Positions 6,912 through 22,450 of a stretch of 32,000 nucleotides of DNA are shown here, piece after piece. The stretch comes from Vibrio cholerae ATCC 14035. Lineage in GTDB: Bacteria; Pseudomonadota; Gammaproteobacteria; Enterobacterales; Vibrionaceae. The stretch covers positions 90,001 to 122,000 of the forward strand of contig NZ_JHXR01000014.1 in NCBI RefSeq assembly GCF_000621645.1. The letters run 5' to 3'. The position numbers and the translations under genes were made by a program. Each line of letters opens with the position of its first letter. Position 1 is the first letter of the stretch. The notes under the pieces were generated by a model. The model was not told the DNA's origin and did no database searches. It saw only the letters and a program-made list of their open reading frames with translations.

Positions 6912-8795
6912 TCACGCAAAGTGATGCATTTCCATGGCGGTGAGTACTGATATTTGGTTGCGTCCCGATGTTTTGGATTCATATAAAGCCAGATCGGCTC
7001 TTTTGTAGCTTTGGTCGGGTGATGTGCAAACATCGGTAACACCACCACTTAGGGTCACTTGTTGATGGTGTAATGAAGCGATATGCAGGCGTACGCGGTT
7101 AAGTACTTGTTCGGCTTCTTCAATGGAAGTGTAGGGGAAAATAATGGCAAACTCTTCTCCGCCAATCCGTGCGATAAAATCCGATTCCCGTAACTGATCT
7201 TGGATGCCTTTCGCAACGGTCCGTAACACTAGGTCCCCTTCGTTGTGTCCGAATTTGTCGTTAATGCGTTTAAAGTGGTCGATATCAATGATAGCAAGGC
7301 AGCTCTGGGCTTGATCGGGATAACGGCGACGCTTAGCGCACTCTAAAGAGATGGTTTGATCGAATTTACGTCGATTCCACAAATCGGTTAACGCATCTTT
7401 TTCGCTCAGCTCACGCAGGCGATTCTCCAGCGCCTTGCGATGTGAAATATCCACAAAAGAGGCAACGTAGAATTGAATGACATTGTCTTCATCGCGGATG
7501 CTTTGAATACGGAGAATTTCGGTGATGCTTTCGCCATCTTTGCGTTTGTTGATCACTTCACCTTCCCATACGCCATTGTCTTGCAGAGCTTTCCACATCT
7601 GCATATAGAATTCGACTTTGTGTAATCCAGAAGCAAAAATGGACGGCTGCTTACCTTTGACATCTTCAAAAGTGTAACCACTTAGGCGGGTAAATTCGTT
7701 GTTTACTTTGATGATGCGATTCTGGCGGTCGGTAATGACCACCGCTGACATGCCATCCATCGCTGCTCGAGCCAATTTACTGTCAAGGCTATTTTTTAAA
7801 TGGTTGATGTTCCATGCCGCAAATCCAGCCGCAATGATAGAGAGTAGCGATAACACTGTCACCGCTTGACTCATCAGTGCCCAGCGCGCATTTGCGTAGG
7901 TCTTATCTATTTCTGCCTTATTGATGCGCAGTACCAATACCAAAGGTTTAAAGTCAGGTAAGACAGAACTGAGATCCACTTTGATATAGCTAAACCAGGT
8001 TTGATTGGATAGAGCAAAGCCTTGTTGGTTGAGTTGGATTTTTTGCCAAAGCTCTGGGTGTTGGGCTGAAAAGTGGAGTGAAGAGGTTGAACGTGTACCG
8101 GATGGCTTGTGTTCACTGAGCAGTAATTCTCCTGCCGAATTCAAAATATCCGGTGAATCAAACTGATCATAAATAAAAGAGAGACGTTGATAGAGAGACT
8201 GTAGCTTCACCGTCACGACAAGAAAACCTTGCCGTTGGCCTTGATGCTCAATACCCGTCACAAAACGAAAGGTCGGCAGCATACCAGAAGGCGTATCTGC
8301 TGACATCGCGACTTGCGTTGCCCAAACTTGAGGCGTCGTGAGTTGGGCGTATTGAGCCACAATTTGCTGGCTGAACGGATCTGTCGTTTGAGCAGATTCA
8401 ACAAAGGTGACTTGGTGCCCATCGTAAATCGCTTTAAGTTGTTCTTTTCCTTGTCTATCCAGCAATCTGAATGAAGAGAAAATCGCTTGCGATCTTAACG
8501 TCACATCCCACAATGTTTTGAGTTGACTGAGTGCTTCTTTACTTGGTGTGGTGACAGCCGTGAATAAAAGGTCATTTTTAGCTAACAGCTGGGTGGCTTG
8601 GTGTGTGCTTTCCAGCATTCGTAACAAGTCATGCTGACTGAACTCAAGTTGTAAGCGAGTCTGTTTTTCAACGCTGCTGACCGCTTGAGTCTCAAGCTGG
8701 CTAGCAGCATGTATGAAATACAGTGTAGGAATGAAACCAAGTACAAACGCAACAATGGCAAATTGTATGAAATATTTACGGGCAGAGGTGTACAT
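6912..8795 (-). CDS. cdgD: Membrane sensor diguanylate cyclase with TM, large periplasmic domain, TM, PAS and GGDEF domains. The ORF track opens at TTG 8840; ATG 8795 is preferred.
   Basis: GGEEF active site with an RxxD I-site (RESD) five residues upstream. The PAS segment follows the second TM. The cdgD symbol comes from my recollection that V. cholerae VCA0697 is CdgD. The start codon is uncertain because neither candidate has a good SD. Confidence 0.8.
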   Translation of the reverse strand: MYTSARKYFIQFAIVAFVLGFIPTLYFIHAASQLETQAVSSVEKQTRLQLEFSQHDLLRMLESTHQATQLLAKNDLLFTAVTTPSKEALSQLKTLWDVTLRSQAIFSSFRLLDRQGKEQLKAIYDGHQVTFVESAQTTDPFSQQIVAQYAQLTTPQVWATQVAMSADTPSGMLPTFRFVTGIEHQGQRQGFLVVTVKLQSLYQRLSFIYDQFDSPDILNSAGELLLSEHKPSGTRSTSSLHFSAQHPELWQKIQLNQQGFALSNQTWFSYIKVDLSSVLPDFKPLVLVLRINKAEIDKTYANARWALMSQAVTVLSLLSIIAAGFAAWNINHLKNSLDSKLARAAMDGMSAVVITDRQNRIIKVNNEFTRLSGYTFEDVKGKQPSIFASGLHKVEFYMQMWKALQDNGVWEGEVINKRKDGESITEILRIQSIRDEDNVIQFYVASFVDISHRKALENRLRELSEKDALTDLWNRRKFDQTISLECAKRRRYPDQAQSCLAIIDIDHFKRINDKFGHNEGDLVLRTVAKGIQDQLRESDFIARIGGEEFAIIFPYTSIEEAEQVLNRVRLHIASLHHQQVTLSGGVTDVCTSPDQSYKRADLALYESKTSGRNQISVLTAMEMHHFA

Positions 8796-9198
8796 AATTC
8801 GATGTATAAGTCGTTGAGTGCATACTATAGAACGAATCAAATGAGATTTCGCTTCCAGAATTTTACTTCGTGCACTCGATCATAGTTTGTGTTTGTTAAT
8901 AAACGAACCATGCTCAATTTTTCAGCAGAGGATCCGATTAAGAGAGGCAATCCGATGATGCCTGCCGCATTTACATTGTAAATCTCGCATTCATTTTGGG
9001 TGTCGATTGGGCGACGCGGTGACGGATGATCTTCCATAACCGCAGCATGAAGTGTGTCTTTACTTCAAAAAATCTTTTTATCAGAAGATTTCTGGTCAAG
9101 CTTTGTTCAAATATCCCGCTATATTGATAAGAAAGTAAGATTCGTCGCATTTTCGTATTAATGACGTTGTGCTAGAGAAATTTTACGAGCGGGGGAAA

Positions 9199-9870
9199 AT
9201 GAAAAAAATACTCATGCTACTCGTGCTGATACTCGGATTAGGCGGAGCAGGTGCGGGATTTTATCTGTTTTATCTCAAGCCGCAGATGGATGCGGAAGCG
9301 GCTAAAGCCAATGAAGTACCTGAAACTGCGCCTGAGACTCCTGCAGAGCCAACTCCCGCTATCGAAGCCAAACCTGAGATTATGGATTTTTATGTCGATG
9401 CGGTGACATTAAGTATTCGTGATCAACCCGATCCCAATGCTTATCCGGATGTTGATAAGCAACTCTATCGTGGTGACAAGGTTCATTTACTTGAAAAAAA
9501 AGGGGGATGGGGGCGTATTTCGGATTATTACGTGTATGAGGACGGTGGGCCTGAAGTGGCAGAGTGGATCCCCTTAGAAGGATTGACCGTCGAACCGCCT
9601 GTGATTACGCAAGAAGAGCGCACTAAAACCTTAACAGGTTATATCGAAAGCTCGGATGATTTTCTTTTGCATCAAGAAAAATTCCTGACTACAACCGATA
9701 CCTTATTAAAAGAGGGAAATTGCTCGCCCAAAGATTTTGAAGAGCTCGGAGGCTGGGTGCGCTCAGTCACTTTCGGAGAGCAGCCGGTGTATTTTATCTA
9801 CTGCGGAGGTTTGAGCCAGACACATAAGATCTACCTGAACGTGCAAACTGGCCAAATTTTCTATCGCTAG
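9199..9870 (+). CDS. Hypothetical membrane-anchored or secreted protein with an Ala/Pro/Glu-rich linker and an SH3-like segment. The track opens at GTG 9169.
   Basis: MKKILMLLVLILGLGGAGAGFYLF anchor. SD ggggga precedes ATG 9199. The SH3b-like stretch is LSIRDQPDPNAY...LYRGDKVHLLEKKGGWGRISDYY. Confidence 0.6.
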   Translation: MKKILMLLVLILGLGGAGAGFYLFYLKPQMDAEAAKANEVPETAPETPAEPTPAIEAKPEIMDFYVDAVTLSIRDQPDPNAYPDVDKQLYRGDKVHLLEKKGGWGRISDYYVYEDGGPEVAEWIPLEGLTVEPPVITQEERTKTLTGYIESSDDFLLHQEKFLTTTDTLLKEGNCSPKDFEELGGWVRSVTFGEQPVYFIYCGGLSQTHKIYLNVQTGQIFYR

Positions 9871-9946
9871 ATCACATTTTTTCGCTTGAGCTTCACTGAG
9901 CATCGGCCTACACTGCTCACTTATCTAAGAGGCGAGATCTGAAGTC

Positions 9947-10402
9947 ATGTACTTGCGTGTTCTGATCCAGTGTTGGTTTGCTTTACTTGCGGTGGTGCTA
10001 CCTTCGCAGGTTTTTGCTTATGCGCTGGAAAGTGAAGCAAGCTCTGCATGTCCAGAAGCCAGCATTTCGACAAATCCGATCCTTGAATCCGATTGGCTTT
10101 TGAGTTCAGCTCCGCAGCCTGCCATACCGAGTTCGCAGTCGCACGTTAGTCATAGTGCTTATGCAATTTTAAATCATTCGCGTCACGCCCCGACACAACG
10201 TCTTCTCGTAGGGTGTGGCTCTGATCTGCCGTTGGACGCTGATTTTGATGAGCCCCAATTAGGCACTTCTCACAGTCGGCCGCTTTTTGCTACAACGACC
10301 GACTACTGCAACCGAAGTTACGACTTTTTCACCTCCTCTCACCGACTTGCGGGTTGGAAAGAGAGTAACGCTATGTATGTAGCGCTCAACAGCCAATTCT
10401 AA
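9947..10402 (+). CDS. vemP: VemP-like export-monitoring translation-arrest peptide (151 aa) upstream of secDF
   Basis: Signal peptide MYLRVLIQCWFALLAVVLPSQVFA. The C-terminus HRLAGWKESNAMYVALNSQF-stop matches the V. alginolyticus VemP arrest motif as I recall it. The ORF sits 71 nt upstream of secD on the same strand. Confidence 0.8.
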   Translation: MYLRVLIQCWFALLAVVLPSQVFAYALESEASSACPEASISTNPILESDWLLSSAPQPAIPSSQSHVSHSAYAILNHSRHAPTQRLLVGCGSDLPLDADFDEPQLGTSHSRPLFATTTDYCNRSYDFFTSSHRLAGWKESNAMYVALNSQF

Positions 10403-10473
10403 CGTTCCCACATTCATTTTTTAGTGTGACATTGTCACTTGTTGAATCACTCAGTTTAGGCTGAGAGGGAACT
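10403..10473 (+). promoter_or_regulatory. vemP-secD intergenic RNA element predicted to occlude the secD Shine-Dalgarno sequence
   Basis: gttccc (10404-10409) is complementary to gggaac (10467-10472), which overlaps the SD gagaggga. A local hairpin ctcag (10450-10454) / ctgag (10461-10465) also covers the 5' half of the SD. Pairing was checked by hand only. Confidence 0.5.
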
Positions 10474-12312
10474 ATGAAGAAAAAAACACAAAATCAGGCG
10501 GCGAAACGCCTGATCAACCACTATTCCGCTTGGAAGTATGTGGTTCTGATAACCACCATCATCATTCTAACCTTAAGTGCTATTCCTACTTGGTATGGCG
10601 AACAACCTTCTATTCAGTTGCAATCTAAAGATGCAACGAGTGTATTACGCAACGTTCCTGAGCTGACGCAATTGCTCAATAAGCAAAACATTCAGGCCGA
10701 TGAAATTACCCAACAAGGGGATAACACCACCTTGGTTTTTGCCAACGAAACGCAGCAATCACAAGCCAGAAATGTACTGGATGCGCTTGTGAAAGAAGGG
10801 GATACGATCACGTATTCTTATGTGTCTGTTGCGCCAAAGTGGCTAGGCAATTTGGGTTTTTCACCCATCAAATTAGGCTTGGATTTACGCGGGGGCGTAC
10901 AGTTTCTGCTGAATGTGGATGTCGATAAGGCCTTCCAAGAACAGCGCGACAGTATGATGGATGCAGTAAAAGATTCGCTGCGTACAGAGCGTTTGCGCGG
11001 TGTCTCGGTGCAAGCGATGGGTAATGATGCTTTTGAGGTCAGAACTGAACAGCCGCAAGCCTTGAGCCATGTACGCAAATACTTGCAAGAAAATTATCGA
11101 GGCTGGGAGATTCGTCAAGGCTCAGATCAGTTGCAGGTTCAGCCATCACAACAAAATAAATCCGAGTTTCAAACTGCGACGATTCAACAGAACTTGAAAA
11201 TCATGCGTGATCGGATTGAAGAACTTGGGATTACAGAAGCTCTGGTTCAACGCCAAGGTGAACATGCGATCCGTATTGAGCTGCCCGGTGTGCAAGACCC
11301 CTCACAGGCGAAGAATGTGATTGGTGCGACCGCAAGTTTGGCGTTTTATGAAGCAAAATCTCCAACGGATGCGCGCAGTTACGACGATTTAATCCTAGAA
11401 GATGGCAATGGACGTCCTGTGATTCTGGCTAAGCGTCCAGTGCTGAGTGGCGAGCATATCGTCAATGCCCGTGCGGGTGTGGACAACATGGGTATGTCTG
11501 AGGTGAACATTTCACTGGATCACGCAGGCGGCAAAATCATGAGTGATTTTTCCGGTAAACACATTGGCAAACCGATGGCGACCGTCTATCGCGAATATAA
11601 AACCAATGCGCGTGGCGAAACCGTTCGCAGTGAGAAAGTGATCAGCGTTGCCACCATTCAATCTCAATTGGGGAGCCAATTTCGTATTACGGGCGCAGGT
11701 TCAATGGAAGAAGCACAGCAGCTCGCCCTACTGTTGCGTGCAGGCTCGCTGACGGCACCTGTCACCATTGTTGAAGAGCGCACCATCGGTGCTTCTTTGG
11801 GTGAAGAAAATATTGCCAACGGTTTTGCTGCTTTGGCGCTTGGTATGGCAATGACGCTGACTTTCATGGCGCTTTGGTATCGCCGCTTGGGTTGGGTGGC
11901 AAATGTCGCTTTGTTGGTCAACATGGCTTGTTTGTTGGGTCTGATTGCTTTATTGCCAGGGGCAGTATTGACCCTACCAGGTATTGCAGGTTTGGTGTTA
12001 ACCGTGGGTATGGCGGTGGATACTAACGTGCTGATCTTTGAACGTATTCGCGACAAACTCAGTGAAGGGCGTAACTTTGCACAAGCTATTGATACCGGTT
12101 TTGACAGTGCTTTCAGCACGATTTTAGATGCCAACATTACCACCATGATCACGGCAGTCATTCTGTATTCGATTGGTAATGGTCCTATCCAAGGCTTTGC
12201 TTTGACTTTGGGCTTAGGCCTACTCACCAGCATGTTCAGTGGCGTATTCGCTTCACGAGCATTGATTAATTTGGTTTGGGGACGCGATACGCGTCGTGAT
12301 GTGAGGGTATAA
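10474..12312 (+). CDS. secD: Protein translocase subunit SecD (paralog-type, 612 aa)
   Basis: N-terminal YSAWKYVVLI TM, a large periplasmic P1 domain with LDLRGGV, and a C-terminal 6-TM RND-like region. Confidence 0.92.
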   Translation: MKKKTQNQAAKRLINHYSAWKYVVLITTIIILTLSAIPTWYGEQPSIQLQSKDATSVLRNVPELTQLLNKQNIQADEITQQGDNTTLVFANETQQSQARNVLDALVKEGDTITYSYVSVAPKWLGNLGFSPIKLGLDLRGGVQFLLNVDVDKAFQEQRDSMMDAVKDSLRTERLRGVSVQAMGNDAFEVRTEQPQALSHVRKYLQENYRGWEIRQGSDQLQVQPSQQNKSEFQTATIQQNLKIMRDRIEELGITEALVQRQGEHAIRIELPGVQDPSQAKNVIGATASLAFYEAKSPTDARSYDDLILEDGNGRPVILAKRPVLSGEHIVNARAGVDNMGMSEVNISLDHAGGKIMSDFSGKHIGKPMATVYREYKTNARGETVRSEKVISVATIQSQLGSQFRITGAGSMEEAQQLALLLRAGSLTAPVTIVEERTIGASLGEENIANGFAALALGMAMTLTFMALWYRRLGWVANVALLVNMACLLGLIALLPGAVLTLPGIAGLVLTVGMAVDTNVLIFERIRDKLSEGRNFAQAIDTGFDSAFSTILDANITTMITAVILYSIGNGPIQGFALTLGLGLLTSMFSGVFASRALINLVWGRDTRRDVRV

Positions 12313-12315
12313 GCC

Positions 12316-13218
12316 ATGGTTGACTATTTAAAATCTCGAATCCGTCCGATTCGCTACATCACTGGCATTATTTCGGTCTTGTTGATGGTGATCTCGCTAG
12401 GGGCTTTTGCAATCAAAGGCTTGAATATGGGCTTAGATTTCACCGGCGGGATGGTCACGGAAGCGATCATTAATCACTCGGTGACCAAGTCTCAGCTGAT
12501 GGATCAATTACAGCCGGTACTGGGGGAGTCGGTTTCTGTCACGCCTTCGGGAGAAGAAGGGCGTTGGGTGATCCGTTATCCATTAGCTGCTGAAGATGCT
12601 ACGCCTGTAGACATTGCGACAGAGCTGCATCACATCTCAGATCAAGTGCAAATTGTCAGTAACAGCATGGTGGGATCGCAAGTTGGGCAAGAGTTGATCG
12701 ATCAAGGCGGACTCGCTTTGTTGATTTGTCTGCTCTCAATACTGGCTTACTTGAGCTTTCGTTTTGAATGGCGTTTAGCGAGCGGAGCCCTATTAGCTCT
12801 GCTGCATGACGTGATTTTGGTACTGGGTTTCTTTGCGATAACGCAAATGGAATTCAACTTGACGGTATTTGCCGCAGTCTTAGCGGTGCTCGGCTATTCA
12901 TTGAACGACTCGATCATTATTTCGGATCGTATCCGAGAATTACTGTTAGCGAAGCAGCAGACGCCAACCGCAGATATTAATGACCAAGCCATTATTGCGA
13001 CCTTCTCACGTACAATGGTGACATCAGGTACCACTTTGATGACCATTTCGGCACTTTGGCTGATGGGCGGTGCCCCGTTACAAGGTTTCGCCATCGCCAT
13101 GTTTATCGGCATAATTTCAGGGACTTGGTCATCGATTTCGATTGGTACTGTGTTACCTGAATGGTTAGGTTTGGAATCGAAGCACTATCTCCCTGTTGAG
13201 TTGGATGCAGCACCATAA
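12316..13218 (+). CDS. secF: Protein translocase subunit SecF (300 aa)
   Basis: GLDFTGG motif and 6 TM segments. The ATG lies 3 nt after the secD stop. Confidence 0.92.
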   Translation: MVDYLKSRIRPIRYITGIISVLLMVISLGAFAIKGLNMGLDFTGGMVTEAIINHSVTKSQLMDQLQPVLGESVSVTPSGEEGRWVIRYPLAAEDATPVDIATELHHISDQVQIVSNSMVGSQVGQELIDQGGLALLICLLSILAYLSFRFEWRLASGALLALLHDVILVLGFFAITQMEFNLTVFAAVLAVLGYSLNDSIIISDRIRELLLAKQQTPTADINDQAIIATFSRTMVTSGTTLMTISALWLMGGAPLQGFAIAMFIGIISGTWSSISIGTVLPEWLGLESKHYLPVELDAAP

Positions 13219-13239
13219 ATTGCTCATATAAAATAGAAT

Positions 13240-13268
13240 AAAGCCAGTTTGTACTGGCTTTATTTGTA
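13240..13268 (+). terminator. Rho-independent terminator after secF
   Basis: Stem aaagccagt (13240-13248) / actggcttt (13253-13261), loop ttgt, then atttgtattt. Confidence 0.7.
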
Positions 13269-13888: not shown

Positions 13889-14629
13889 ATGAGAAAAATC
13901 GCTTTGATCACAGGATCGAAAGGCGGGATTGGTTCTGCAATTTCAACCCAGTTGGTCAGTGAAGGTTATCGAGTTATTGCCACTTACTATACGGGCAATT
14001 ACCAATGTGCGTTAGATTGGTTTAATGAAAAGCAATTTACCGAGGATCAAGTGCGCCTCTTAGAGCTAGACGTCACCAATACCGAAGAGTGTGCTGAGCG
14101 TTTAGCCAAACTGCTTGAAGAAGAAGGCACCATTGATGTGGTGGTTAACAACGCAGGTATCACGCGTGACAGTGTGTTCAAAAAAATGCCCCATCAAGCA
14201 TGGAAAGAGGTCATAGATACTAACCTCAATAGCGTATTCAATGTTACCCAGCCTTTGTTTGCCGCTATGTGTGAAAAAGGGTTTGGTCGAATCATCAATA
14301 TCTCCTCGGTTAATGGTCTCAAAGGTCAGTTTGGTCAAACTAACTATTCGGCAGCCAAAGCTGGGATGATTGGTTTTTCTAAAGCATTAGCTGCAGAAGG
14401 CGCACGCTACGGTGTGACGGTTAACGTGATTGCACCTGGCTATACGCTGACGCCAATGGTTGAGCAAATGCGCGCTGAAGTTTTGCAATCCATTGTGGAT
14501 CAAGTACCCATGAAACGCTTGGCTAAGCCGGAAGAGATAGCTAATGCCGTCAGTTACTTAGCCAGCGATGCCGCCGCCTATATCACAGGGGAAACCTTGT
14601 CGGTGAACGGCGGCTTATACATGCGCTAA
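13889..14629 (+). CDS. phaB: Acetoacetyl-CoA reductase (SDR family), 246 aa
   Basis: TGSKGGIGSA cofactor motif, NNAG, and the catalytic YSAAK. Clustered with thiolase, phasin and PHA synthase genes. Confidence 0.9.
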   Translation: MRKIALITGSKGGIGSAISTQLVSEGYRVIATYYTGNYQCALDWFNEKQFTEDQVRLLELDVTNTEECAERLAKLLEEEGTIDVVVNNAGITRDSVFKKMPHQAWKEVIDTNLNSVFNVTQPLFAAMCEKGFGRIINISSVNGLKGQFGQTNYSAAKAGMIGFSKALAAEGARYGVTVNVIAPGYTLTPMVEQMRAEVLQSIVDQVPMKRLAKPEEIANAVSYLASDAAAYITGETLSVNGGLYMR

Positions 14630-14641
14630 GTAGGAGGAAGT

Positions 14642-15847
14642 ATGGAAAAGATCTATATCGTGGGAGCAAAGCGCTCAGCTATCGGAGCCTTTGGTGGTTC
14701 ACTTAAAGAGTGTTCGGCAGGCGCTTTGGCAGGACAAGTCATCCAAGCCGCTCTTGAAGCCGCACAAGTCAAACCTGAAGCTGTCGATGAAGTGATTGTT
14801 GGTAACGTTGTGAGTGCCGGACAAGGCATGGGTGTTGGGCGTCAAGCGGCTTTAGTGGCTGGTGTTCCACAGTCGGTTCCAGCTTACAGCATCAACATGG
14901 TGTGTGGCAGTGGGATGAAATCGGTGATGGATGGGGTTGCGCACATCAAAGCGGGAGATGCTTCTGTCGTTGTGGCCGCTGGTGTTGAGGTCATGTCACA
15001 AATCCCATTTGTTACGCCTGCCAGCTTACGAGATGGGCAGAAAATGGGCGCGTTTGAAGTGAAAGATCTGCTCATCCATGACGGTCTGACCGATGTCTTC
15101 AATCAATACCACATGGGTGTGACGGCAGAAAATATCGCTAAACAGTACGACATCGCTCGTCAAACACAAGATGAGTTTGCGTTGGCCAGCCAAATGAAAG
15201 CGACAGCGGCCATTGAAGCCGGACATTTTAAGCGAGAAATTGTGCCTATTTCGGTCAAAAAACGCCGTGAAACCGTCGTGTTTGATACGGATGAATACCC
15301 TAAACCGACGACCACGTTGGCAGCATTGCAAGGCTTACGCGCCGCCTTCGATGCACAAGGTACGGTTACCGCAGGTAATGCTTCTGGAATTAACGATGGT
15401 GCCAGTGCGGTGATTATCGCCAGCGAAAGTGCGGTAAAAAAACTAGGCTTAACCCCTATCGCAGAAATTATGAGTTATGCACAAACAGGGTTGGATCCGA
15501 AAGTCATGGGCTTAGGGCCTGTGAGTGCAGTCACTCAAGCATTAGCGAAAGCAGAATTATCTATCACTCAGGTTGATCTGTTTGAACTTAACGAAGCGTT
15601 TGCCGCTCAAGCATTAGGTGTCGTTTACGGTTTAGCTGATCAACACGCGATTCAACCTGAGGCGATTTTAGAAAAAGCCAACGTCAATGGCGGTGCCATT
15701 GCGTTAGGGCATCCACTAGGGGCATCGGGTAACCGCATTCTGGTTACTCTGCTTCATGAATTACAGCGTCGCCAAAAACATTATGGCGTCGCTTCACTCT
15801 GCGTCGGCGGTGGCATGGGCACCGCGATCGTGATTAAAACAGTTTAA
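14642..15847 (+). CDS. phaA: Acetyl-CoA acetyltransferase (biosynthetic thiolase), 401 aa
   Basis: Active-site NMVCGSGMKS, GHPLGASG, CVGGGMG. SD aggagg. Confidence 0.92.
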   Translation: MEKIYIVGAKRSAIGAFGGSLKECSAGALAGQVIQAALEAAQVKPEAVDEVIVGNVVSAGQGMGVGRQAALVAGVPQSVPAYSINMVCGSGMKSVMDGVAHIKAGDASVVVAAGVEVMSQIPFVTPASLRDGQKMGAFEVKDLLIHDGLTDVFNQYHMGVTAENIAKQYDIARQTQDEFALASQMKATAAIEAGHFKREIVPISVKKRRETVVFDTDEYPKPTTTLAALQGLRAAFDAQGTVTAGNASGINDGASAVIIASESAVKKLGLTPIAEIMSYAQTGLDPKVMGLGPVSAVTQALAKAELSITQVDLFELNEAFAAQALGVVYGLADQHAIQPEAILEKANVNGGAIALGHPLGASGNRILVTLLHELQRRQKHYGVASLCVGGGMGTAIVIKTV

Positions 15848-18142: not shown

Positions 18143-19198
18143 CTATTTTGCATAGGGCAGCAAAAATAGGCCACGAGGGTTAAAGACTACATACGCGTGC
18201 TGAGTTAATGCGTGATTAAACTGCGCGGAATTGAGCTGTAACAGCAGTTCTTGATCGTGCCATTTTACGGTCACTTCATACATTGAACCCATATACGCTG
18301 ATTTGAGGATTTGGCAGACTTGGCTTTCGCTGCCTTGCGTATGCAAGGTGATCGCTTCCGGGCGCACACCAATTTGGTATTCACCAGTAGGCTTATTCCG
18401 CGTCACTTCTGGATCGGCATCAATTGCGTAGCCATGAATATGAATCTGCTGCCCGTCAAAATGGCCTTGGAACATATTGGCCTCACCCATAAAGTTCGCC
18501 ATAAACATCGACTTAGGCGCTTTATACAACTCTTGTGGCGTGCCAATTTGCATAATATCGCCCTGTTTCATCACGATAACGGTATCTGATACCGCAAAGG
18601 CTTCTGCCTGATCGTGCGTCACGTAGAGCGAGGTAATATCAAAACGCTGCTGCAGTTCGCGAATGGTTTCACGCATGCTGCGACGCAAGTTGGCATCTAA
18701 GTTACTCAACGGCTCATCAAATAGCAGTACCTTAGGTTTGAGCACCAAAGCCCGGGCAAGGGCAACACGTTGCTGCTGACCGCCGGAAATCTGGTCAACA
18801 TAGCGTTCACCCATTCCTTCGAGATCAACAATTTTAAGTGCTTCATCAACTCGCTGACGCACTTCTTCACTCGGTAACTTGAGCATTTTCAAGCCATAAG
18901 TCACGTTTTCGTACAGAGACATGTGCGGGAATAGGGCGTAAGACTGAAACACCATACAGATATCGCGTTGTTGGATGGAGCGTTCGGTGACATCTTCACC
19001 ATCGATGAAAATCTGCCCGCTGGTCGGTTTTTCTAAGCCAGCCACCAAACGTAAAACGGTGGTTTTCCCACAACCGGAAGGGCCAAGTAACGTAACCAAG
19101 CTGCCTTTTTTGATCTCAAGATCCAAGTTGCCAATCACGGTATTGCTACCAAAGCGTTTGCAGATGTTTTTGAGTACAACAAAGTTTTGTTTTTCCAC
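18143..19198 (-). CDS. afuC: ABC transporter ATP-binding subunit (FbpC/AfuC family). Probable hexose-6-phosphate importer ATPase. GTG start.
   Basis: Walker [10 protein letters not shown], signature [14 protein letters not shown], Walker [11 protein letters not shown] aggaga lies 7 nt before GTG 19198. Confidence 0.9.
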
Positions 19199-21415: not shown

Positions 21416-22450
21416 TTAGTTACCCATTTTGATTTCGTTAACCCACTTGGTGATCAAACGCTTACGCTCATCAGAAGAGCCGTAGGCTTCCATATCGTAA
21501 TTGATCAGTTTGAGTGTTTTCGGATCGAGCGCATTCGGCGACTGTTCCGCTTGGGTGTTGGTCAAGATTTGGTAGGAATCACCTTGTTTCCATGCCACTT
21601 CTTGGCCTTCTTTTGAGAGTACCCAGTCAACAAATAGCTTGGCATTATCGAGGTTGCGCGCGCCTTTGATGATGCTCACGCCACCTAACTCATAACCTGT
21701 ACCTTCACAAGGAGAAATGAGCTCCAGCGGTGCACCTTTGGCTTGCTCCAGCGAGTAGTCATGCAGGAATCCAATACCAATCGCCACTTCACCACGTGCC
21801 GAGTTGCGTGATGGCGTCACCCCAGATTTGGTGTATTGAGAAACGTTTTTGTCGAGCTTTTTGAAATACTCAAATGCGGTGGGTTCATCCCAGAGCTGGA
21901 TGAAGGTTGCGAGTGCGGTATAAGCAGTGCCAGAGCTTTGTGGGTCGGAGATTTGAATTTCGCCTTTATATTCTGGTTTGGTCAAATCCGCCCAGCAACG
22001 CGGGATCGGAATGCCTTTTTGTGCCAAGCGTTCGGTGTTCACACCAAAGCCCAAAATGCCCATGTATACCGCAGAAGAGTAGTTACCTTTGCGTTTGGCA
22101 GGATCACGGAAACCTTCCATGATGTTGGCCAGTTCTGGGGATTGGTAAGCTTGGAGTAAGTCCATTTCACCCGCTTGTGATTGTGGGTCAAGCGTGCCGC
22201 CGTACCAAACATCCGCGCGTGGGTTGTTTTTCTCTGCATCAATTTTTGCGAGTGTACTGCCTGAACCGTTGCGTACAAAGGAGGTGTTCACATTGTATTT
22301 TTCAGCGAACGCTTTGGTTCCGGCTTCACACATCGCATTGGTTGCACTGCAGTAAACCACCAAACGGCCTTCCGCATGAACCAGCGGCGCAGTCATCATT
22401 GAACCAAGAACACTGAGTGCCAGCAGCGTGCGTTTTGCATTAACAATCAT
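21416..22450 (-). CDS. afuA: Periplasmic substrate-binding protein (FbpA/AfuA family), 344 aa. Probable hexose-6-phosphate binding protein.
   Basis: Signal peptide ..APLVHA-EG, a type II PBP fold family, first gene of the ABC operon, immediately downstream of uhpC. Confidence 0.88.
   Translation of the reverse strand: MIVNAKRTLLALSVLGSMMTAPLVHAEGRLVVYCSATNAMCEAGTKAFAEKYNVNTSFVRNGSGSTLAKIDAEKNNPRADVWYGGTLDPQSQAGEMDLLQAYQSPELANIMEGFRDPAKRKGNYSSAVYMGILGFGVNTERLAQKGIPIPRCWADLTKPEYKGEIQISDPQSSGTAYTALATFIQLWDEPTAFEYFKKLDKNVSQYTKSGVTPSRNSARGEVAIGIGFLHDYSLEQAKGAPLELISPCEGTGYELGGVSIIKGARNLDNAKLFVDWVLSKEGQEVAWKQGDSYQILTNTQAEQSPNALDPKTLKLINYDMEAYGSSDERKRLITKWVNEIKMGN

Follow-up and report, generated by a model that had tools for sequence, protein, structure and literature searches.

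A probable VemP export monitor and a predicted Shine-Dalgarno-occluding leader upstream of secD2-secF2 on chromosome II of Vibrio cholerae

We analysed a 32,000-nucleotide (nt) stretch of the genome of Vibrio cholerae ATCC 14035 (contig NZ_JHXR01000014.1, positions 90,001 to 122,000; 'the window' below, with its own numbering used throughout), in which an open reading frame (ORF) of 151 amino acids (aa) at 9947-10402 precedes the genes of a SecD-SecF pair. An earlier note, made from the sequence alone, had read this ORF as an export-monitoring nascent chain of the VemP type that controls the downstream secD through an RNA leader hiding its Shine-Dalgarno (SD) sequence. That reading is upheld by sequence homology, the anatomy of the locus, in silico masking of the leader, covariation across the family and the published literature. 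We put at about 0.9 the probability that the ORF is V. cholerae VemP, the export-monitoring leader peptide of a vemP-secD2-secF2 operon on chromosome II (ChrII). The system itself is already known: a vemP-secD2/F2 operon has been stated for V. cholerae (Ikeda et al. 2024, PMC11470409), and ours is a correct re-identification in a species where it was already acknowledged.

The vemP-secD2-secF2 locus

The vemP ORF runs on the plus strand from an ATG at 9947 to a TAA at 10400-10402 (151 codons plus the stop), and its product begins MYLRVLIQCWFALLAVVLPSQVFA and ends SSHRLAGWKESNAMYVALNSQF. A search of 177,635 chain sequences of the PDB returned a sole significant match, the 'VemP nascent chain' (5NWY chain s, also 7QG8 and others), at E = 6.7e-10, so that the kinship proposed in the earlier note is significant on alignment as well. 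The alignment spans residues 32-151 and ends RLAGWKESNAMYVALNSQF in the window ORF and RISGWKETNAMYVALNSQF in the PDB chain. Scans of the ORF against Pfam and NCBIfam matched no family model. The ORF shares 99% identity with a 340-member V. cholerae cluster, and the public annotation of the protein, VCA0694, is 'hypothetical protein', much as the earlier note had warned that such an ORF is easily dismissed.

The gene numbers follow from published primers. A 2015 diagnostic paper used 'hypothetical protein VCA0694' (NC_002506.1, c634002-633547, 456 nt) as a V. cholerae-specific target for the polymerase chain reaction (PCR). The length of that target, 456 nt, is the length of the vemP ORF, and the published primers map at 10038-10059 and 10172-10191, with an amplicon of the published 154 bp. 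As the primers lie inside the ORF, the genes are VCA0694 (vemP), VCA0693 (secD2) and VCA0692 (secF2); the last number is also the one given for secF2 by Sit et al. 2022 (PMC9876793). VCA0694 occupies 633.5-634.0 kb of NC_002506.1, which places the locus at about 634 kb on the 1.07-Mb ChrII. V. cholerae replicons of 1.02-1.14 Mb encode an identical VemP among the same neighbours in the same gene order, and across V. cholerae assemblies the exact protein was found in more than 1,500 index blocks.

The ATG of secD2 lies 71 nt past the vemP stop on the same strand, and secF2 then follows. SecD2 (10474-12312, plus strand, 612 aa) matches the Pfam models SecD-TM1, SecD_1st, SecDF_P1_head and SecD_SecF_C and the NCBIfam model NF009545 (1096 bits against a cut-off of 728), and E. 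coli SecD (5mg3_D) at E = 8e-146; its N-terminus is conserved among loci. SecF2 (12316-13218, plus strand, 300 aa) is intact and matches TIGR00966 (265 bits) and Pfam SecD_SecF_C. Both reading frames are unbroken, and both protein lengths agree with those at other loci. For comparison, 66 loci were fetched from Vibrio, Photobacterium and Thaumasiovibrio species, in 64 of which the stall codon and the secD start could be located (65 loci with the window); secD lies downstream of vemP in all 64 of these loci from other species.

SecD and SecF are duplicated in V. cholerae, and at least one pair is needed for viability; deletion of secDF1 raises SecD2 and SecF2 in the proteome and turns secD2 essential (Sit et al. 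2022, PMC9876793). The secD1F1 genes, of the housekeeping set yajC-secD1-secF1, lie outside the window. The ion specificity of SecD2F2 (H+ rather than Na+) has been called putative (PMC11470409). In re-sequenced N16961 secF2 is intact, having earlier been mis-annotated as a frameshifted pseudogene (PMC9876793).

As far as sequence features can tell, the first 24 residues of VemP (9947-10018) form a signal peptide. It would comprise an n-region with R4 and a charge of +1, an h-region of residues 5-19 in which the 9-residue hydropathy peaks at 2.81 over residues 10-18, and a c-region from the helix-breaking Pro19 to VFA24, ahead of Y25, where V-F-A satisfies the -3/-1 rule. The 'cleavable-looking' signal peptide of the earlier note stands on hydropathy, charge and cleavage site, and the N-terminal hydrophobic block is kept among VemP homologs.

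Counterparts of two elements implicated in the cancellation of arrest align further along the protein. Alignment to the PDB VemP chain places A59-I60-P61 (10121-10129) opposite Q65-S66-P67 of V. alginolyticus VemP, the (Hphi)xP element defined by Ikeda 2024 (PMC11470409). In the family alignment the Pro of this element is present in 62 of 63 orthologs, and the -2 position is variable (S 22, Q 11, P 9, A 5 and others) and not uniformly hydrophilic. The ortholog alignment further identifies a short hydrophobic segment, Y72-A-I-L75, followed by N-H-S and then R79 (10160-10183), as the counterpart of L78ALF81 and Arg-85, through which arrest cancellation is tuned (Miyazaki 2020, PMC7793623; Ikeda 2024, PMC11470409). 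The R79 column is Arg in 62 of the 63 orthologs, A73 and I74 are nearly invariant, and the 3-residue spacing is retained. From P61 through Q150 the register differs from that of V. alginolyticus VemP by a constant 6 residues.

The arrest motif itself, HRLAGWKESNAMYVALNSQ, extends from H132 to Q150 (10340-10396). The VemP motif given in the earlier note was correct: the PDB chain carries HRISGWKETNAMYVALNSQF where the window ORF has HRLAGWKESNAMYVALNSQF, with 16 of 19 positions identical over H138-Q156 of the V. alginolyticus protein. The motif R133-LAG-W137-K138-ES-N141-AM-Y144-VALNSQ150 conforms to RxxxWKxxNxxY, the consensus that was used to define 339 VemP-like sequences (Fujiwara et al. 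2024, PMC10987492). Residues R133, G136, W137, K138, N141 and Y144-N148 are invariant in the 63 orthologs, which share only about 30% identity outside the motif. The ribosome contacts of VemP, and stalling with Q156 in the P site, were described by Su et al. 2017 (PMC5449182), from whom our information on critical residues is taken at second hand; the contacts in the upper tunnel and peptidyl-transferase centre (R139, W143, K144, Y150, L153, N154 and Q156) are all kept, as R133, W137, K138, Y144, L147, N148 and Q150. The three substitutions within the motif are S to A, I/L and T/S. The first falls where the S141A change left stalling unaffected in V. alginolyticus (Su et al. 2017, PMC5449182), and the alternatives at the other two split almost evenly among the 63 orthologs.

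By homology to V. alginolyticus, the ribosome would stall at 10394-10402, with Q150 (CAA, 10394-10396) in the P site, F151 (TTC, 10397-10399) in the A site and the TAA at 10400-10402 next. In 61 of 63 orthologs an F or Y follows the stall residue. Several departures within the family were also seen. The stall Gln is naturally His in 15 of the 63 orthologs (as NSHF, NGHF or NAHY; loci L009-L011, L018, L019, L021, L031, L032, L035-L037, L042, L044, L050 and L064), and the Met143 column holds Leu in 24. V. kyushuensis has two vemP-like matches on different scaffolds (L025 and L066), echoing the two-copy species in Fujiwara 2024, and in V. cincinnatiensis (L048) no ATG-started vemP frame is longer than 71 aa, which points to a truncation or frameshift.

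The RNA leader between the stall site and secD2

Folding of 10340-10510 predicts a three-way junction at 10404-10472 (-18.7 kcal/mol). Its long-range stem joins GUUCCC (10404-10409), which lies +11 to +16 from the first nt of the stall codon, to GGGAAC (10467-10472), beside the secD2 ATG at 10474; the pairing had been spotted in the earlier note, and the two arms are paired in the minimum free energy (MFE) and centroid folds. Inside the junction are an inner helix of AUUCA (10412-10416) with UGAAU (10443-10447), which surrounds a palindrome and is predicted in the MFE fold only, and an SD-proximal hairpin of 6 bp, CUCAGU-UUAG-GCUGAG (10450-10465, -5.8 kcal/mol), found in both folds. The stem, the inner helix and the hairpin are on the plus strand, as is the SD of secD2, which reads GAGG(G) at 10465-10469, 5 nt upstream of the ATG. 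In the free mRNA G10465, held by the local hairpin, and G10467-69, held by the long-range stem, are paired with a probability of 0.99-1.00. No Rfam family matched 9800-10600 in a scan at E <= 1.

With Q150 in the P site of a ribosome, established footprint and toeprint distances place the 5' arm, at +11 to +16, within the mRNA channel. We modelled the stalled ribosome by masking 10382-10409 and measured the cost of opening 10463-10476. The fold with the mask differed from the fold without it in the direction foreseen by the earlier note: the SD-opening cost dropped from 12.3 to 6.5 kcal/mol, a drop equalled by 2% of shuffles of 10400-10425. The pairing probability of 10467-10472 fell from 1.00 to 0.22-0.59, and 10460-10465 stayed paired.

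The decisive evidence on the leader comes from the family. An attempt to recover the long-range stem with MAFFT and RNAalifold yielded only two local hairpins; the position of the 5' arm varies by a few nt from species to species, which put the alignment out of register. This approach was set aside for a register-free test, in which the 30 nt that follow the stall codon are paired with the 21 nt that end at the start codon and the best duplex is taken. Across the 65 loci, cognate duplexes averaged -9.9 kcal/mol against -7.7 for cross-species combinations (permutation p = 5e-5), and reducing the set to 26 cluster representatives did not change the result. As controls, six other segments from these loci, three in vemP and three in secD, gave cognate pairs no advantage (p = 0.05-0.99). 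Of the segments tested, only the 30 nt that follow the stall codon co-evolve with the SD/start region.

The pairing is carried by at least 10 distinct arm sequences, for example GUUCCC/GGGAAC in V. cholerae, GUUUCC/GGAAAC in V. mimicus, UCUUCCC/GGGAAGA in V. paucivorans, AAUAUUCC/GGGGAUAUU in V. furnissii and AAACACCAUCA/UGAUGUUU in the harveyi clade. Equivalent 5' arms lie at about +6 to +33 in other species, and their distance from the stall codon is kept whether the sequence is coding or non-coding. The tail of the ORF past the stall codon ranges from 1 to 9 codons, and in V. mimicus and V. chanodichtyis (L002 and L003) the 5' arm is itself coding, still at about +10 to +16 nt. For the SD-proximal hairpin, RNAalifold on 17 short-spacer species found an invariant CUC...GAG base with co-varying inner pairs (GC, GU, AU and UG).

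In the energetics of opening, the window ranks 13th of the 65 loci, its ΔΔG(open) of 5.6-5.8 kcal/mol lying at the upper end of the range (1.3-6.4) of the harveyi/alginolyticus clade, which supplied the experimental demonstration of the switch. Some long-spacer clades (L008, L010, L018, L021, L028, L030, L034 and L036, with spacers of 190-250 nt) have a ΔΔG of about 0 and no complementarity between arm and SD, and the family is therefore not uniform. These clades must use another leader architecture, perhaps a relay of helices.

A matS palindrome in the leader and the surroundings of the operon

At the centre of the leader, at 10426-10438, lies a palindrome that the earlier note overlooked. 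The sequence, GTGACATTGTCAC, is at once a 5-bp mRNA hairpin (-3.5 kcal/mol) and an exact fit to the consensus of matS, the MatP-binding site, GTGAC[AG]N[TC]GTCAC (PMC3603311); it is the only exact copy in the 32 kb, where 0.04 are expected. Two further matS-like sites with one mismatch each, GTGACATCTTCAC at 18987-18999 and GTGATGGCGTCAC at 21808-21820, were seen in the window. Sites of the matS/MatP type in Ter macrodomains were reportedly described by Mercier in 2008 and, for V. cholerae, by Demarre in 2014.

The location may suit such a site. MatP chromatin immunoprecipitation sequencing in V. cholerae detected 35 matS sites on ChrII, some of them in coding sequences, with a density in TerII of about 6 per 100 kb (Espinosa et al. 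2024, PMC11564523), and the TerII macrodomain covers 546 kb around the zone opposite ori2 (PMC11564523). The palindrome fits the matS consensus exactly, its locus lies at about 634 kb on ChrII, and the 32-kb window has three matS-like sites against 0.13 expected, in agreement with TerII density.

Across species the palindrome is conserved in one of two places. It recurs nearly letter for letter in the vemP-secD2 spacer of 18 loci, from Photobacterium to V. cholerae, at +26 to +32 nt from the stall codon (the window, L001, L002, L009, L024, L026, L031, L032, L035, L042, L044, L048, L050, L054, L057, L061, L063 and L064). In 15 other species the same 13-mer sits 141-156 nt inside secD2, in frame as V-T-x-S at codons ~48-53 (L006, L008, L010, L011, L016-L018, L020, L021, L027, L028, L030, L033, L036 and L038). 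The spacer copy and the coding copy never occur together in one locus. Among 16 loci encoding VTxS[QHP] the Ser codon is always TCA, the third-codon wobble position always G and the Val codon GTG in 15; the P-S-I-Q codons beside the coding copy vary freely at synonymous sites. This pattern suggests that a matS at vemP-secD2 has been under long-term selection as a MatP site at a syntenic position.

Other roles for the palindrome fit less well. A CRP site has the form TGTGA-N6-TCACA. Judged against that form, the palindrome has a half-site spacing of 5, not 6, and lacks the leading T in most species. The idea of a purely structural spacer hairpin was rejected, since other clades carry this very 13-mer within secD2. 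It is quite unlikely that the palindrome is an integral, sequence-specific RNA part of the riboregulator and not a DNA site. In favour of such a role are the fixed +26 to +32 nt between stall codon and palindrome in each of the 18 spacer-type loci, its place as the middle hairpin of the predicted three-way junction and the different palindrome that the harveyi clade has at the same place. Against it stand the exact consensus match, the clustering of matS-like sites at TerII density, the mutual exclusion of spacer and secD2 copies and the 15 species whose 13-mer lies too deep in secD2 to act on the SD and yet has frozen synonymous sites. The palindrome is most likely a MatP-binding DNA site, with the RNA hairpin a by-product, and on the available evidence its place within a translational leader is incidental to how VemP works.

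Around the operon, a pattern scan alone marks a 12-bp palindromic, terminator-like hairpin at 13237-13264 as a candidate operon end. A promoter scan upstream of vemP gave no convincing sigma-70 site; TTGAGC-N17-TACACT at 9886-9914, picked out by eye, is weak and below the scan threshold, and we do not claim it. Upstream of vemP by 76 nt and on the same strand, 9169-9870 encodes a protein of 223-233 aa that has a hydrophobic segment at its N-terminus and matches no Pfam or NCBIfam model, and beyond that gene a sensor-PAS-GGDEF diguanylate cyclase is encoded on the minus strand (6912-8840). After the operon, ORF translations identify acetoacetyl-CoA reductase-like and thiolase-like genes, a polyhydroxybutyrate-type pair, at 13889-15847.

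A proposed force-sensing switch and its alternatives

Our data support a model taken by homology from V. alginolyticus, to which the present analysis contributes homology, anatomy, predicted energetics and the co-evolution of arm and SD. The signal peptide would target the VemP nascent chain to SecYEG, and HRLAGWKESNAMYVALNSQ in the exit tunnel would silence the peptidyl-transferase centre with Gln150-tRNA in the P site and the Phe151 codon in the A site. Under efficient export, with Na+-driven SecD1F1 and PpiD/YfgM pulling on the chain, arrest would be quickly cancelled and translation would terminate two codons later; the leader would then hold its three-way junction, GUUCCC (10404-10409) pairing with GGGAAC (10467-10472) and the hairpin at 10450-10465 retaining the first G of the SD. 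Under poor export the ribosome would remain parked over 10382-10409 and block the 5' arm, the 3' half of the SD and the spacer would become single-stranded, and secD2-secF2 would be translated. What is inferred for V. cholerae is that elongation arrests, that pulling releases the arrest, and how large the translational response is.

Several observations weigh against this account. On the protein side, the lower-tunnel contacts W124 (to uL22) and H133 (to uL4) are replaced by T118 (10298-10300) and F127 (10325-10327), and the hydrophilic position of (Hphi)xP is Ala59, with Pro61 kept. Ala at Q65 destabilised arrest of V. alginolyticus VemP (Ikeda 2024, PMC11470409). The earlier note had called the C-terminus 'almost identical' to VemP, which is right for the arrest core and wrong for T118 and F127, as it is for A59 further upstream. 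On the RNA side, the SD of secD2 is weak (GAGG), and the window fold is no more stable than shuffled sequence (z = -0.40), so that the evidence from this single sequence is suggestive only. The local hairpin, correctly placed on the SD by the earlier note, is not opened by the stalled ribosome as modelled; it persists under stalling, leaving a residual cost of 6.5-7.0 kcal/mol against ~3-5 in the harveyi clade, and the predicted exposure of the SD is therefore partial, limited to its 3' part and the spacer. Finally, we found in the literature no direct test of V. cholerae VemP arrest. The H133 column is variable in the VemP family, and the W124 and H133 contacts, both of which raise arrest efficiency in V. 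alginolyticus, are accessory and not defining. The differences at Ala59, T118 and F127 leave the defining core untouched but could change the strength of arrest.

One alternative keeps VemP as a true arresting peptide and makes the long-range stem incidental, with secD2F2 controlled by the local hairpin acting constitutively together with effects on transcription or mRNA stability, for instance a stalled ribosome that protects the mRNA or prevents premature termination. The insignificance of the window fold speaks for it, as do the 13% of shuffled 5' regions that bind the SD region equally well, the local hairpin that is still folded during stalling, and the ΔΔG of about 0 in L008, L010, L021, L028, L030 and L034, a sign that the family has other architectures. 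Against it, co-evolution with the SD/start region is family-wide and specific to the post-stall segment, the arms change together between V. cholerae and V. mimicus within the cholerae clade, and the ΔΔG of 5.6-5.8 kcal/mol falls in the top 2% of shuffles. We judge it very unlikely. It is scarcely credible that the ORF merely encodes a small secreted protein, or is a remnant in decay, with a VemP-like tail and with its arrest and its hold on secD2F2 lost: the 'hypothetical' label everywhere, the lack of a Pfam or NCBIfam model, the differing tuning residues and the absence of a fitness cost on secF2 disruption in rich medium (PMC7505983) are outweighed by the exact protein in more than 1,500 index blocks, an arrest core that is invariant while other regions of VemP drop to about 30% identity, and the rise of SecD2/F2 and essentiality of secD2 on SecDF1 deletion (PMC9876793).

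VemP as an export monitor upstream of secD2-secF2 has been described in V. alginolyticus, including the SD-sequestering stem-loop (Su 2017, PMC5449182; Ikeda 2024, PMC11470409). The V. cholerae locus shares with it the order vemP-secD2-secF2, the cleavable-type signal peptide, the stall Gln followed by Phe, the 16 of 19 identities of the arrest window with its R, W, K, Y, L, N and Q contacts, the Arg-85 equivalent with the hydrophobic segment and 3-residue spacing, the Pro of (Hphi)xP, and sequestration of the SD by sequence just 3' of the stall site. Further studies of V. alginolyticus VemP and SecD2/F2 are said to include those of Ishii and colleagues in 2015 and Mori in 2018. The two systems differ in size and layout. 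V. cholerae VemP has 151 aa and a tail of F, with the stop one codon past the A-site Phe, whereas the V. alginolyticus protein has 159 aa and a tail of FSA; the spacer is 71 nt against ~165 nt; and the 5' arm lies at +11 to +16, wholly within the stalled ribosome, against ~+12 to +32. In V. cholerae, moreover, W124, H133 and Q65 are T, F and A, the residual local SD hairpin is stronger, and the spacer bears a matS site.

Other arrest peptides offer functional parallels. SecM of E. coli, upstream of secA, is likewise a monitor bearing a signal peptide whose C-terminal arrest is freed by Sec pulling and whose stalled ribosome melts an SD-hiding stem (PMC10987492), but its arrest sequence, FSTPVWISQAQGIRAGP, is unrelated, the regulated gene is secA, and SecM was absent from the PDB search matches of the vemP ORF. 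uDF_RQH of Alteromonas, one example among other arrest peptides encoded upstream of secDF2, carries a localization signal, and its arrest induces the downstream secDF2 copy (Fujiwara et al. 2024, PMC10987492); it belongs to the RQH arrest motif family, whereas the window ORF has the VemP consensus RxxxWKxxNxxY.

Two extensions of the model, which we consider unlikely, concern the features peculiar to V. cholerae. In the first, the matS palindrome is more than a bystander: MatP occupancy, or the encoded RNA hairpin (at a fixed +32 nt from the stall codon), could modulate transcription of the leader or folding of the SD trap, and such a role, if true, would make the secD2F2 switch responsive to how the chromosome terminus stands. 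In the second, the sensor has been retuned in V. cholerae: Ala at the hydrophilic position of (Hphi)xP, the missing W124 and H133 contacts and the stronger residual SD hairpin could make arrest lifetime and output differ from those of the marine V. alginolyticus, a retuning that, if true, would suit a low-salinity and host-associated lifestyle.

Overall, our work confirms biology rather than discovering it, VemP being a textbook force-sensing arrest peptide, and its practical consequences lie elsewhere. VCA0694 is uncovered by Pfam, NCBIfam and Rfam models and labelled hypothetical, and annotation pipelines therefore keep missing vemP, a gap in which the gene has come to serve as an anonymous species-specific PCR marker. 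As the leader overlaps a consensus matS, its mutagenesis should separate RNA from DNA functions. Lastly, secF2 (VCA0692) has been used as a 'neutral' integration site, its disruption carrying no fitness cost in rich medium (PMC7505983), and Sit et al. 2022 (PMC9876793) have cautioned against this practice. Our analysis backs their caution: the vemP-secD2-secF2 operon appears to be an intact, regulated backup for an essential function of V. cholerae.

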